Assembly (NCBI GenBank): GCA_040954595.2
Contig: CM082588.2
Location: 7,734,844 to 7,798,843, forward strand
Source of the DNA: Balanoglossus misakiensis
Taxonomy: Eukaryota; Animalia; Hemichordata
Length of the DNA: 64,000 nt
Reading direction: 5' to 3'
Shown: positions 1 to 64,000 of the stretch, one piece after another
How the letters are laid out: every line of letters begins with the position of its first letter
Position numbering within the stretch: position 1 is the first letter of the stretch
Program-made: the position numbers and the translations under genes
The notes under the pieces: generated by a model
Seen by the model: only the letters and a program-made list of their open reading frames with translations
What the model was told of the DNA's origin: nothing
Databases searched by the model: none

Positions 1-225
1 CTTTGGCTGATATCGAACAGAACCAACGGGAGAACCAACAAGAAACGACTCAACATCTTGGTCAGATATCAGAAACACAGAGTGACCATAGCAGTACTTT
101 GGCTGATATCGAACAGAACCAACAAGAAACGACTCAACATCTTGGTCAGATATCAGAGACACTGGTTGACATTAAAGAAGGCCTCAAGACTTCACATACC
201 AGTGAGTCAAGAACGTGTGTTCCAG
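1..225 (+). CDS. NLR copy 1, exon 1 (3' part; coiled-coil repeat linker, HEPN part lies outside window)
   Basis: Repeats LADIEQNQ(REN)QQETTQHLGQISET end in ...CVP, followed by donor CCAG|GTAATA (phase 1), as in the other copies. Confidence 0.85.
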
Positions 226-368
226 GTAATAATTAAGATGGAGAAGTGATATTCATTTCTATGGCTGAAATCTACAATCATAGTTGCTTAGTTTGAAAAA
301 AAGATTCTGTTGTATGTACACCACCATTAAAAATAACTTTTTCTATAAATTCTCTCCTTTATCTCAAG

Positions 369-500
369 ATGCTTCCTGTGCTTGGTGCAACTGTAAGAGT
401 GATAATCTCAAGAAGTTTATACGCTGTTGTGAAGTGATGTATTGTGGGAAAGACTGCCAGAAACAACACTGGATGAAAGGTCACAGAGAAGAATGCAAAG
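369..500 (+). CDS. NLR copy 1, MYND-type zinc-finger exon (phase 1-1, 132 bp)
   Basis: Pyrimidine tract ttctctcctttatctcaag|AT and donor AAAG|GTACAA; encodes CAWC...KKFIRCCEVMYCGKDCQKQHWMKGHREECK (MYND-like, one Cys replaced by Phe). Confidence 0.65.
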
Positions 501-1126
501 GTACAATTGATCCTTTTCTGAACTCCACATGACGTACCCACGAGATTTCACGTAGCTAAGCAATTTATATGGGAGGACATTCCCCTGGCACAGGGCAAAC
601 AATTAACACGGCCCACCATTTTCAATGGCACAAACAATTACATTTTTGTTAAACTCTGCACCTATTCTAATTTCTTAGCTACCAACACGTTGCTATAGTA
701 ATCATCCAAGTCTCAGGAGATTTCTCAATGAGCTGGAAATCATCATTGTTAAAGTCTGAACCTATATTCTAGTTACATACCAAGCTAGATAGTATGAAAA
801 TATTCACAAACACCTTTTAGTACATGTAAGAACTTATAAATAAGATACTGAAAATCTCCATGTTTCACGCATAATGTTTGTATTCTCATGTGCAGAGCTG
901 TCTGTCAAAAAGCTTGGGGTAATCACAACATGACCCTGCCTATATGGAACACAATATGTGGTTCATATACTACGGTAGTTATGGGTCATAATACTTCTAG
1001 TATACCATATGTAACCCCTGACTATATTATACTTAGTACAATGATGTTTTACAGCTTGTGAAAATAAACAGCAACTATCTGCAATACAAAAGTCATACTA
1101 TCAATATTATAATTGTTTTTCTACAG

Positions 1127-3933
1127 ATACTTCTGCAGAGTTTGAGTGGCTTAAAGACTATCTCAAAGAATTGTACAGCCATGACTTTGACAAGTTCCAA
1201 CCTCTGCCATGGAATGAAAACTTCTCGCTTCATTTATCTGATGTGTATACCCGACTGAAGATGGTAGAGGTTGATGAAAGGGGTAAGATCATTAAGGACA
1301 ATGAAGAAAATGACACTGTAGTTCATGAAAGTGCAATATTTGAAGCAGATAGAAAAGGAGTGAGACCACGTAGAATAAGAATTGAAGGACCTCCAGCTAT
1401 TGGCAAGTCAATGTTTTGTAGAAAGCTGGCCTACAACTGGGCTTGTGGAAAATTAGAGCAATTTAAATTAGTCTTTCTGTTGGAAATGAGATATATGAGT
1501 AAAGAATCAATCATAGAAACCATATTTGATCAATTACTTCCTGATGATGCGGGGATTTCCAGAGATGAGCTTGACAAGGTTCTGAAAAGGAATGCAGATT
1601 CTGTGCTGTTCCTCTGTGATGGTTTGGATGAAATGTGTAAGGATTTCAAGGAAATTTCTGATATTAGTCGGATTATTGCAAAGAAATTATTGCCAAGATG
1701 TACAGTAGCTATCACAACCAGGCCCCATGAATGTGACACACAGCTGAAAAACTGTGATTCACATTATCACATACAGGGCTTCACAAAGAGTGATTGTGGG
1801 GAATATATCAGGAAGTACTTCAAGCATGAGTCTGAGACTGGTGAGAATTTGATCATAAATTTAGTACAAAACCTCTGGTTTGAATGGTTGGGTGATTTCC
1901 TTAGTAATCCCTTACATGTTTCATTTCTTTGTGTACTGTGGGAGGATCATCAAGATGGTGACCATTTCCCAACTAGAGTGACAGAGTTGTATTTTGAAGT
2001 ATTGAAGTGTATTTTGAAGAGGTATTGTTCCAAGACTGGAGTCAGTCTTGATGATATCATGGCTGATGTAAGTAAACTGGCTGCCATTGCTTATAATTAT
2101 CTGAAACAGGGAAAAATACACATAAATGAGTTAGATGTGATTCCATCACGGCTCTTGTCACTAGGGTTACTTGTGCGTGATTGTGGTGTATCTCGCACAA
2201 AACCAAAGAAAGTTTGTTTCTTCTGTCACAAAACTTGGCTGGAATATTTTGCTGCTTTACATATTGCTGAATGTGTGAAGGATACTGCTTCCTTTGATGA
2301 GTTTCAATTTCTATCTGACGACATTTATGACCGCAATTTCCAAGTCTTTGTATTTCTGACTGGCACTCTGAAGGAGAAAGCTGGTCCAGTATTTAAGGAA
2401 ATTGGGATGGAGACGTGCAAGTCTGTAGGTGATGTTGGCCTTGAGTTTAGAATGTACTACTATATAGATTTCTTACATGAAAGTGTCAATTATCAAGCAT
2501 TTTTGAAATTCATAGAACCCATCCTTTTTCAATTGATGCATTTCATTTGTAATCCTTTATTTTATTTAAAAGTAAGACCTTCTATGGTTGTCAATTCTTT
2601 GTCTTCACCGTCACCTTATATTGTAGGTGACGATTTGAATTGTCATACATTGTATTATAAAGATAGATACTTGATGATAATCATTGATATGCTGAAGTAT
2701 AAACACTCACATGAAAGTAGACCCAAATTTAATAAAAATCTCCAGTTAGATATAAACAATATGCAATCATCAGAGATTTCCTATTTGGCAGAGGCACTGG
2801 AGAAGAATCTTATTTCTCTTGAATGGCTTGTGTTGTATGTGAGTCTATCCAGTGGCAAGGATCTGCTTCAGTTGGCAAAAGCTATCAGAGAAACCAAAGC
2901 GGTACAAAACATTCATATCCTTGTAAGTGATGATAGGGATAATGTTGTTGACAGCACTCCCAATGAAAAATGTAAGCAAGGCACCTCAAATAAAGAAACA
3001 GATTTGACATCACGCACTTTAAGAAACTTTATTGAAAATGCTGTGAAAAACAAGTATATTGATTGTTTGTCATTGCATACAGTTGACCGGTCTCACCATT
3101 CACAGGAGAATATTGATAACATTCTTCCATATAAGTCATTGAAACAGGCCAGGCACTTTCATAATATTGTGGAAACCAAAACAGGTGTAAATAGCGTATT
3201 ATTGAAAGTTGCTGATATGCTTGAACACTGTCAATCTACCAAGGTTTGTCATTTTGTACTTTTTGACCATTTGATATATTCTGTCATTGAGGGCAGTACT
3301 GCAAGAGCTTTGTTCAAAGCTGTTAAAAATATCAGCAAAACAATTAAATCTCTTTGCTTGTTTGTCACATCAGTATTTGCAAAGATACCTTATCTATCTC
3401 ATGTTGTGAATGAGATTTTACACATTTTGAAGTCTAACACCACATTAGAGGATCTTAAGTTATTTATAAAGAATGAAAATGTTGATGCTGTATCGAAGTT
3501 TATTCAATGTAATAAGAATGTCAAGTCACTGTCCTTTGCTCTGTATCAGTCCAGAATGAGCATAGACCATTTATGTTCAGCTCTCTGTGCTGCTTTGAGT
3601 TCCAATACAACTCTGGAAAGCTTTGCGCTGCATTTTGGTTTTGAGTTTGATATAGTTTATAGTAACCCTGAACTTTCCACTGAGCATAAGTATATTAGTC
3701 AATTGATTTTACCAACACATAGATTATTGTGTGATGGAAAAACTGCATTGAAGACGATTTCATTTACTTTTCCATCATTAGATGCAGAACGCAGGGATGA
3801 TATTGTCAATGTCATGACCGAGTATTTTAAAGGAAATGTTTCATGGTCATACCAATGCACTGTGAAGATGCCAATCAAGTTGTTTGGTGACATGTATTTT
3901 CACGTTCTGAAAGTATCGATCAGTGGACCCTAG
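1127..3933 (+). CDS. NLR copy 1, NACHT-winged helix-LRR terminal exon
   Basis: Acceptor tttttctacag|AT in frame with the 920-aa ORF; Walker A GPPAIGKS, Walker B VLFLCDGLDE, ITTRP, SNPL, FCHKTWLEYFAA; degenerate LRRs (NTTLEDLKL, NTTLESFAL). Confidence 0.92.
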
Positions 3934-62152: not shown

Positions 62153-63381
62153 CGAAGGACACAATTTGTATGTAAGGAAATATGTGGAGAGTAGCAGAAT
62201 ATTTATTTAAACCAAGTGACACAGTTTTGTAAGACACATTCCTGTACAGATTCAATTTAGTTCTGTTTCTAACCTCTGTCCAAAATGCCAACATTTGCTG
62301 GAAATTGTATGAGACTTATCAAGTTTGGAGATGGCACAACAAGAGTTTAAATATCTTAACTCATTGTCATACATTTGCTTATTTCTATTTCTTGCTTTAC
62401 TTTGTTATTTTTTTATTGAAATGTTTTTTTCTTAATTTCTTTAGAACCTGTAAATGAGACTTGTTCCAGTTGGTCTTTCTGGAAATAAATATAGTCTGAG
62501 AAGAAAGCAATTCTGAAAAATCTGTTTTCTTTATTTTATTTAAAACAGAATGAATAAAAAGATCGAAAGGTTGTATTATGTAAAGCGAGGGGAAAATATT
62601 GTTAAACGAATGTAAAAGTTTGACTCTAGTGCAACTAATGCAAAATATATTTAAGGGACAAAGTCTCTCTCTCGTTGCCCCTTTTTCCAATAATTAGGTT
62701 AAATACAAGACACCGTTATGTTATTCTACATGCGGATATATAGTGCGTCAACGTTCGACTACACACAATTTCCATCCCACTTATTGACATGAGAGTGAAA
62801 AACTCGCCAAAATGAATAATCGATCTCTATGAATTACTAAATAGAGAAATGTCTAGGAGTCTTCTCAAAACATTGTTACACATGGCCAGATCACATGACT
62901 GATTGTAAAGAATATATTCATCGATATCGTCACACATATCGCTTAAAATGACGTGACTTTTTTAGATGGCATGTCTACAAAACCAAGACTGTTATCATTC
63001 AGATGTACTGAAGGCTTTTTGCTTTATATCTTCACATTTGTTCCATTAAAATCCTACACACAGTTTTACTACAATAATTATATACAATATATTGCTTTCA
63101 CATATTTTAAGAAGATGTTCTATACCCTTCACGCTTTAGCTGTACAGTGCTTTCGTCAGCGTCAAAGCCAAAATGTTAGTATTGACTCCACAAATACTGC
63201 AACCCATCCAACATTACATTTCGAAAGCTTGTTGATGAGGTCATCAACATAGACATAAATAAATATGGGAAAGTACACCTCCTTAACCTAACTACATGGA
63301 TATATAGAGGAACACCGTATTAGCATTTTGACCTATCTGAAGTCAAATGCCATGAATATTTGCAGGCGAAAACGAGGTTGA

Positions 63382-63392
63382 GGGGATTCCCC
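63382..63392 (+). promoter_or_regulatory. NF-kappaB-type site upstream of NLR copy 7
   Basis: GGGGATTCCCC. Confidence 0.55.
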
Positions 63393-63848
63393 GATGATAT
63401 CACCATTACGGACAACCATATATTTCTTTTTGTTTATATGTACTTGCCTCCTAGTATTTTGCGCCAATGTCAGTGGCCTTCACATTTGAAATCGTAGCCC
63501 CCAAATATCGATTTGTTGGACTTGTCTTCCCATATGATATAAAGTAACGAGAAACTTCATCAGATTGTATCATTCTAACCACTTAACTCTAGCACTCAAA
63601 ATATTTCAAGTGACTTTCACATATACATATACATGGAATGGTAAGGCCACTGTTCCAAGCCTCTGTTAGACTGTGTGTTTGTGATTTACACACAGAGTTG
63701 GAATTTGCGCCTGGTTTTAGAAAATGTGAACATTTTAGTGTATCACCAACACTGTTCGAGTTAATCTTGGAAGTGGAGATCTTCATATATCTGCGCTCAA
63801 GTGCTTCCAGAACTGGAGTCAAGTTGTGTTTTGTGATATCGTACAAAG

Positions 63849-64000
63849 ATGGCGACCGGTGGTGCATTTTTAACTACAGCCGAGAAGGTGAATCACGCTA
63901 GACTTTGTCGACTACTTATTGACGACGGATCTAAAGCGGTGAGATGTGTATTTGACAACAAGATTCCACCTAATGTGCTTGCAAACACCCTTAACAAGCA
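63849..64000 (+). CDS. NLR copy 7, start of exon 1 (HEPN), truncated by window end
   Basis: MATGGAFLTTAEKVNHARLCRLLIDDGSKAVRCVFDNKIPPNVLANTLNK. Confidence 0.85.
   Translation, partial: MATGGAFLTTAEKVNHARLCRLLIDDGSKAVRCVFDNKIPPNVLANTLNK

Follow-up and report, generated by a model that had tools for sequence, protein, structure and literature searches.

What do the NLR-type genes repeated in tandem in an acorn worm genome encode, and could their products be ribonucleases (RNases) triggered by a sensor domain? This question is raised by a stretch of 64,000 nucleotides from Balanoglossus misakiensis (assembly GCA_040954595.2, contig CM082588.2, positions 7,734,844 to 7,798,843 of the forward strand), referred to here as the window and numbered 1..64000. 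A first-pass annotation of this DNA had proposed that separate open reading frames (ORFs) join into genes encoding a HEPN RNase domain, a coiled coil, an optional MYND zinc finger, a NACHT domain, and leucine-rich repeats (LRRs), and that the products form an animal counterpart of bacterial STAND-nuclease defense systems.

Gene models and domains of the tandem cluster

Self-comparison of the window revealed seven repeat units with ~88-94% DNA identity, which were named copies A to G in order (Table 1). Six-frame translation detected six NACHT ORFs of 960 to 976 codons and four HEPN ORFs of 320 to 535 codons, all on the + strand. We interpret the cluster as animal NLR genes that have multiplied in tandem recently. 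The first-pass count of seven copies at least partly present in the window holds for the repeat units but not for their content, since copy F has neither HEPN nor MYND; seven full HEPN-NACHT genes were therefore ruled out.

All junctions in copies B to E and in the partial copy A are of the GT-AG type and in phase 1. Splicing in silico afforded models devoid of internal stop codons for the four complete copies (1488, 1246, 1499, and 1442 residues for B, C, D, and E, respectively). In copy C, exon 1 is followed directly by the NACHT exon after a 266-nt intron, with no MYND exon, and skipping of the MYND exon leaves the reading frame intact. The lengths of the six NACHT exons differ by multiples of three only. 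In an ungapped comparison of the six copies, identity was 97% across the 60 nt following the NACHT acceptor versus 56% across the 30 nt preceding it. No methionine precedes the acceptor in five of the six NACHT ORFs, and two Ptychodera flava proteins, P0042 and P0043, are homologous from residue 2 of the NACHT exon onward, ~45 residues ahead of the first methionine of that exon. The phase-1 GT-AG junctions, the open models, the edge of conservation at the acceptor, and the lack of an upstream methionine strongly imply splicing. Splicing of the phase-1 exons likely yields receptors of the HEPN-coiled coil-(MYND)-NACHT-LRR type, as the first-pass annotation had proposed; this holds for copies B to E at the level of predicted gene models, copy F falling outside the scheme.

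The same exons could also be read as sources of two mostly separate products acting in trans, a HEPN-coiled-coil protein made from intron-retaining transcripts and a NACHT-LRR protein initiated at a downstream methionine or provided with another 5' exon. Read-through of exon 1 meets a stop codon three codons past the donor (5/5 donors), the NACHT-LRR frame of copy F has stayed open without an exon 1, and the available part of PMC9646362 describes the pearl oyster as rich in HEPN proteins lacking NACHT. This alternative is nevertheless improbable, since the junctions are all of the GT-AG type and stay in phase whether or not the MYND exon is included, since both the conservation at the acceptor and the homology to P0042 and P0043 start well before the first methionine, and since HEPN-NACHT fusions within one protein are common.

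Pfam searches confirmed the three domains that had been named from the translations. HEPN_DZIP3 (PF18738) was detected in the four exon-1 ORFs (119-143 bits; cut-off, 27), NACHT (PF05729) in the six large ORFs (97-101 bits), and zf-MYND (PF01753) in the four small exons (25.8-40 bits; cut-off, 22.7). As first reported, the sequence RNRLQH, an R-x4-6-H motif of the R-N type, is identical in the four complete HEPN domains, and the Walker A (G[PS]PAIGKS) and Walker B (LCDGLDE) motifs are intact in all six NACHT exons. The LRRs matched no Pfam family and no PDB sequence. The AlphaFold model of the large exon of copy E (mean pLDDT, 76) contained ~11 beta-alpha repeats. This model matched NLRC4, NOD2, and NLRP3 along its length (E 1e-27; Z 24.8, root mean square deviation [rmsd] 23.7 over 711 residues), and its residues 517-901 aligned to the LRR of Rna1p (Z 17.9, rmsd 5.3, 308 aligned residues). 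The fold model thus shows a predicted cryptic C-terminal LRR, too divergent for Pfam, in agreement with the initial assignment.

The linker separating HEPN from NACHT (124-307 residues) consists of tandem 28- and 32-residue units, whose number varies between copies (Table 1). Its heptad pattern is regular, with L/Q at position a and I/H/T at position d. A match to ZMYND8_CC was obtained with one of the four exon-1 ORFs, under the Pfam cut-off.

HEPN as a candidate effector, presumably acquired by exon exchange

All 24 aligned HEPN domains share the R and N residues of the motif, and at least 90% of them have the H residue. Among the copies, the HEPN part displays 90% amino acid identity, with 9- and 13-residue indels. 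Pairwise Nei-Gojobori counts among paralogs, with a column bootstrap (four copies for the HEPN part, six for the other regions), gave rough ratios of nonsynonymous to synonymous differences (pN/pS) of 0.42 (0.26-0.65) for HEPN, 0.43 (0.23-0.94) for the NBD, 0.92 for HD1 plus WHD, 2.24 (1.36-4.2) for HD2, and 1.51 (1.14-2.1) for the LRR. Within the LRR, 50 of the 77 columns corresponding to strand ends and the following loops were variable (pN/pS, 2.29), compared to 38 of 145 for the helices (pN/pS, 1.05). On these values, purifying selection apparently acts on HEPN and on the ATPase core, and the HD2/LRR surface appears to be fast evolving under positive selection. The earlier view that the effector is conserved and that the linker, MYND, and sensor vary is in line with the difference between HEPN and HD2 or LRR, but the ATPase core (95% amino acid identity) exceeds HEPN in conservation. 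The absence of stop codons and frameshifts, together with purifying selection on HEPN and the NBD, ruled out that copies A to E are pseudogenes. The nearest paralog of each copy changes along the gene, which suggests gene conversion or unequal crossover. Both processes would continue to rearrange the sensor, the MYND exon, and the length of the linker.

The best homologues of HEPN and of NACHT both originate from acorn worms (Ptychodera, Glandiceps, and Saccoglossus). The 14 best NACHT matches, all from acorn worms, include 11 proteins with a DED and none with a HEPN domain; HEPN is carried by 16 of the 150 best representatives. A quick NACHT tree was built with 65 cores, comprising the six window copies and 59 of 205 relatives; the 16 representatives with a HEPN domain were all included. 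The window copies fell in a 31-row clade (SH-aLRT, 100) that contains 19 DED rows, 6 rows with no effector, and none of the 19 HEPN rows. All 17 named relatives in this clade, out of 25, are acorn worms. The closest NACHT relatives are DED-NACHT-LRR proteins from Ptychodera flava (P0042 and P0043) and Glandiceps (P0044), with 48-51% identity over the first 480 residues and 37% over 820-949 residues, the homology running from the start of the exon. Unlike the window genes, these proteins have a DED effector and neither a MYND domain nor a repeat linker. In contrast, the HEPN tree (35 rows) placed the window copies as sisters to Ptychodera flava P0001 (support, 98), which has the closest HEPN (49%) and the same HEPN-helix-NACHT order but differs by a NACHT domain that is only 29% identical and belongs to another clade, by a short linker, and by the lack of MYND. 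Uniting the NACHT domains of the window and of P0001 was rejected (p-AU 0.0004 for a 27-row subset in which P0001 is a long branch), and so was descent from a single HEPN-NACHT lineage ancestral to the window genes and P0001.

The genes look chimeric, with a NACHT domain from the DED-NACHT clade and a HEPN domain sister to that of the otherwise unrelated P0001. Because the NACHT and HEPN trees disagree and the homology to P0042 and P0043 starts at exon residue 2, we infer that the effector was swapped at a shared phase-1 intron: a HEPN exon would have taken the place of the DED exon in an acorn-worm-type DED-NACHT-LRR gene, and the MYND exon would have joined as a symmetric cassette. HEPN sits in the slot that is held in relatives by DED, CARD, Death, and TIR effectors, and NACHT is present on the same chain in 36 of the 41 longer HEPN homologues.

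In NLRs, ligand binding lifts autoinhibition and the NACHT domain oligomerizes; in HEPN RNases, the active site is formed by a dimer. By extension, the fast-evolving HD2/LRR surface is predicted to sense an intracellular ligand, whose binding would release autoinhibition, enabling NACHT to exchange ADP for ATP and to oligomerize. The HEPN domains would then cluster, and their paired R-x4-H motifs would form a composite RNase site cutting host or viral RNA and shutting the cell down. We consider it more probable than not that the spliced HEPN-coiled coil-(MYND)-NACHT-LRR receptor functions in this manner, as a sensor-triggered RNase.

Several observations weigh against this proposal. The coupling of NACHT to HEPN via a long and variable coiled coil is its weak step: a linker of this length makes simple proximity-driven activation of HEPN less obvious, and the coiled coil could hold the HEPN domains permanently paired, or distant from the ring, whatever NACHT does. 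The HEPN model is all helical (pLDDT, 80.5). Of the 48,161 chains compared, Csm6 matches it best (Z 6.4, rmsd 3.6, 110 aligned residues), with a score that lies under the trust level of the tool for helical bundles and is only suggestive; the several other HEPN proteins among the top 50 fold matches are also below that level. With Foldseek, the HEPN model remained without a match at E 0.001, and the profile search of the PDB gave matches via NACHT columns only. The pN/pS values are uncorrected and derive from non-independent mosaic pairs, with region limits set after viewing the alignment. The NACHT and HEPN trees were both quick searches, and the long branch is the P0001 NACHT domain itself. 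An unspliced HEPN-coiled-coil product is possible, given the stop codon located three codons past the exon 1 donor. Finally, no RNase assay of any DZIP3-type HEPN was found in the literature searched.

Alternatively, the receptors may be built as modelled, but with a HEPN domain that is not a triggered nuclease. HEPN would instead be an RNA binder, a scaffold, or a bait, paired by the coiled coil, and signaling would proceed via partner DED- or CARD-NLRs. The regular heptads of the long repeat linker are compatible with such pairing, and potential DED-NACHT partners are numerous in the lineage (25 to 27 proteins in Ptychodera, next to 3 to 5 HEPN-NACHT proteins; PMC13012124, Dataset S5). The accessible text of PMC8662601 leaves "RNA sensor or RNase" undecided. 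We regard a non-nuclease HEPN as unlikely, because the R-N-x3-H residues are invariant in the four copies and maintained among the 24 aligned domains as described above and because HEPN occupies the effector slot of the relatives.

MYND cassette, copy F, and other elements of the window

The coordinates of the features are collected in Table 1.

Table 1. Features of the 64,000-nt window
Feature	Position	Strand	Remarks
Copy A exon 1, 3' end	1..225	+	Coiled-coil repeats; phase-1 donor at 226
Copy A MYND exon	369..500	+	132 nt, phase 1-1; third Cys = Phe
Copy A NACHT-LRR exon	1127..3933	+	To stop
184-bp tandem repeat 3' of A	4357..4701		1.9 units
Copy B exon 1	9682..11200	+	HEPN_DZIP3 (RNRLQH at 10066); 9 linker units
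Copy B MYND exon	11647..11778	+	Third Cys = Phe; Cys replaces Tyr preceding fifth Cys
Copy B NACHT-LRR exon	12412..15227	+	
184-bp tandem repeat 3' of B	15631..17816	+	11.9 units
Copy C exon 1	29989..30928	+	HEPN_DZIP3 with 13-residue deletion ahead of motif helix; 3 linker units
Copy C NACHT-LRR exon	31195..33995	+	
184-bp tandem repeat 3' of C	34411..35125		3.9 units
Copy D exon 1	37274..38825	+	HEPN_DZIP3; 9 linker units
Copy D MYND exon	39590..39721	+	Third Cys = Phe
Copy D NACHT-LRR exon	40345..43160	+	
184-bp tandem repeat 3' of D	43578..43921		1.9 units
Copy E exon 1	46597..47929	+	HEPN_DZIP3; 6 linker units
Copy E MYND exon	48701..48832	+	Eight zinc ligands all kept
Copy E NACHT-LRR exon	50271..53134	+	Model: NBD-HD1-WHD-HD2, ~11 beta-alpha repeats
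184-bp tandem repeat 3' of E	53577..54632		5.8 units
Foreign segment, 759 bp	56683..57441	.	Rich in G/C runs; at copy F exon-1/MYND deletion
Copy F NACHT-LRR exon	58023..60847	+	Frame open, acceptor intact
184-bp tandem repeat 3' of F	61239..62153		5.0 units
Copy G exon 1, first 50 codons only	63849..64000	+	Cut by window end

The 132-nt zf-MYND exon is located between exon 1 and the NACHT exon in copies A, B, D, and E. Alignment to the MYND domain of SMYD2 indicated that copy E alone has all eight zinc ligands (C7H), the third Cys being replaced by Phe in the three others; neighboring spare Cys residues might replace the lost ligand. Copy C is devoid of the exon as the result of an intron deletion. 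MYND was found in 0 of 205 relatives and in none of 44 of the 150 best representatives analyzed with Pfam (best five families per protein). A word-seeded search, which is weak for 43 residues, provided no candidate for the origin of the exon. In the literature searched (titles and, for MYND-NACHT, the beginning of abstracts), we found no report of a MYND-NACHT or MYND-NLR fusion or of zf-MYND with HEPN. MYND is absent from the coral tables of 1,691 NACHT/NB-ARC domain compositions (12 of 17 coral supplement files covered), and MYND with NACHT was not found in a cnidarian supplement and two others, a coverage that stops short of pearl-oyster Tables S18-S19.

The MYND exon may be a decaying passenger, mostly skipped, in a core HEPN-NACHT-LRR receptor that is itself real. 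The exon is missing from copies C and F, one zinc ligand is altered in three of the four copies, the frame survives skipping, and the pN/pS of 0.73, calculated over 43 codons, is uninformative. Against this stand the acceptor, donor, and open frame, which are intact in the four MYND-bearing copies, all of which pass the Pfam cut-off. A passenger cassette is a tangible possibility, somewhat short of an even chance; it bears on the cassette only and is compatible with a sensor-triggered RNase.

We also considered, as a very tentative proposal to which we attach little credence, that the MYND exon is an integrated decoy. The coiled coil would pair two MYND fingers, and these would bait viral proteins that seize host MYND proteins via PXLXP motifs, thereby tripping NACHT and the HEPN RNase, and copy F would be a spare sensor exon spliced in phase onto the effector of copy E. 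According to the available part of PMC4742278, the coiled coil of BS69 dimerizes two MYND fingers, which bind viral PXLXP motifs. BS69/ZMYND11 resembles the window genes by a coiled coil immediately ahead of the MYND finger. It differs in being a nuclear chromatin reader and not an NLR, the likeness of the linkers being one of arrangement (the ZMYND8_CC match mentioned above). The Cys residue lost in three of four fingers cuts both ways for the decoy. If correct, this proposal would describe an animal NLR combining a plant-style integrated domain with a bacteria-style nuclease output.

A tblastn search detected neither HEPN nor MYND between copies E and F. Copy F lacks exon 1, the MYND exon, and the proximal part of its upstream DNA, and the 759-bp foreign segment sits in their place; on this evidence, the two exons are considered lost by deletion, the segment marking the site. 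The first exons of copy E and the NACHT exon of copy F combine in phase into an open model of 1429 residues. The NACHT-LRR exon of copy F may have become a pseudogene recently, may encode an NLR without an effector, or may serve as an alternative last exon. A 738-bp insert lies in the second intron of copy E (within 48886-49646). Close to its ends it carries a 33-bp inverted repeat, and after it the final 23 nt of the MYND exon occur a second time, donor site included.

The 184-bp tandem repeat begins ~400 nt past each stop codon. Each unit holds one AATAAA and TGTA/GT-rich tracts, so the repeat likely multiplies polyadenylation signals. Structured RNAs were searched with Rfam, with no match anywhere in the window, and the repeat is not regarded as an RNA gene. 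Introns and spacers contain several copies of a small inverted-repeat element of 180-300 bp (19705-20998, 39197-39490, 48317-48606, and 62649-62827), which likely represents a family of miniature inverted-repeat transposable elements. Upstream of copies B and C lie two copies of a separate multi-exon gene on the + strand (5749-8696 and 24975-29248; 92% DNA identity), the second of which carries 1.3 kb of inserted DNA at the last acceptor, a similar acceptor being left downstream. One exon of this gene resembles eukaryotic and giant-virus clusters (Atlas score, 0.90). We take the gene to resemble "AAC-rich mRNA clone AAC4-like" proteins.

Relation to known receptors and biological meaning

HEPN_DZIP3-NACHT fusions had been mentioned for some invertebrates by the first-pass annotation, and the literature bears this out. 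In the portions of text available to us, PMC3710099 (2013) reports animal lineages in which DZIP3-type HEPN is joined to NACHT and LRR and, for the related CXorf38 family, draws the analogy with RNase L and bacterial STANDs; PMC9646362 reports more than 50 HEPN-NACHT genes in the pearl oyster, in tandem arrays, with Rx4-6H in 194 of 202 HEPN proteins; PMC8662601 reports HEPN-NLRs in nine invertebrate taxa and urges tests; and PMC8260672 reports HEPN as the most frequent NACHT partner across nine cnidarians. Dataset S5 of PMC13012124 counts HEPN_DZIP3-NACHT-LRR proteins in Anthozoa (44 to 97) and in amphioxus. The novelty initially claimed for the full architecture was overstated, since the architecture, the Rx4H arrays, and the STAND analogy had each been published. 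As HEPN_DZIP3-NACHT-LRR genes, arrays, and the RNase idea are already on record, the window cluster belongs to the invertebrate HEPN-NLR kind (PF18738 plus PF05729; corals, pearl oyster, amphioxus, Lingula, and acorn worms). It shares with these NLRs an N-terminal DZIP3-type HEPN with an R-N-x-H motif, NACHT, C-terminal repeats (relative P0056 is a HEPN-NACHT-LRR protein by Pfam), and lineage-specific tandem arrays varying in copy number. It differs from them by the optional MYND exon, the linker of 28/32-residue units, the Pfam-invisible LRR, and a NACHT domain from the DED-NACHT clade. The MYND cassette, which is symmetric, the coiled coil of repeat-dependent length, a DED-to-HEPN swap that can be traced, and the effector-less copy appear to be new. 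Of the architecture proposed in the first-pass annotation, the cassette and the repeat-built linker alone lacked a counterpart in the literature searched and among the relatives. Other relatives show what appear to be further HEPN immune fusions, with two HEPN domains per chain in P0064 and P0068 (amphioxus) and in P0115 and with HEPN fused to a DDX58-like helicase in P0040 (Exaiptasia).

Bacterial NACHT/STAND antiphage proteins with RNase effectors have the same effector-NTPase-sensor layout, and their effectors include HEPN (available part of bioRxiv 10.1101/2022.07.19.500537). The likeness to these proteins, to Csm6 (ranked first in the fold comparison of the HEPN model), and to RNase L is an analogy only, since the window contains spliced animal genes with a NACHT domain of an animal clade. 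In addition, the proposed activation in the window genes is by NACHT and not by oligonucleotide messengers.

HEPN-NACHT receptors rank with the commonest NLR types in corals and bivalves, and the suggestion that they act as RNases dates from 2013. The cluster provides a natural series for testing this role, with or without MYND, with 3 to 9 linker units, or with no effector, and with near-identical HEPN and ATPase domains, although published coral or oyster genes could serve equally for the central question. It also appears to record an effector swap by exon shuffling, together with positive selection on HD2/LRR. If these receptors are ligand-triggered RNases, animal NLRs would kill by direct RNA cutting, without adaptors or caspases, as do bacterial defense STANDs.

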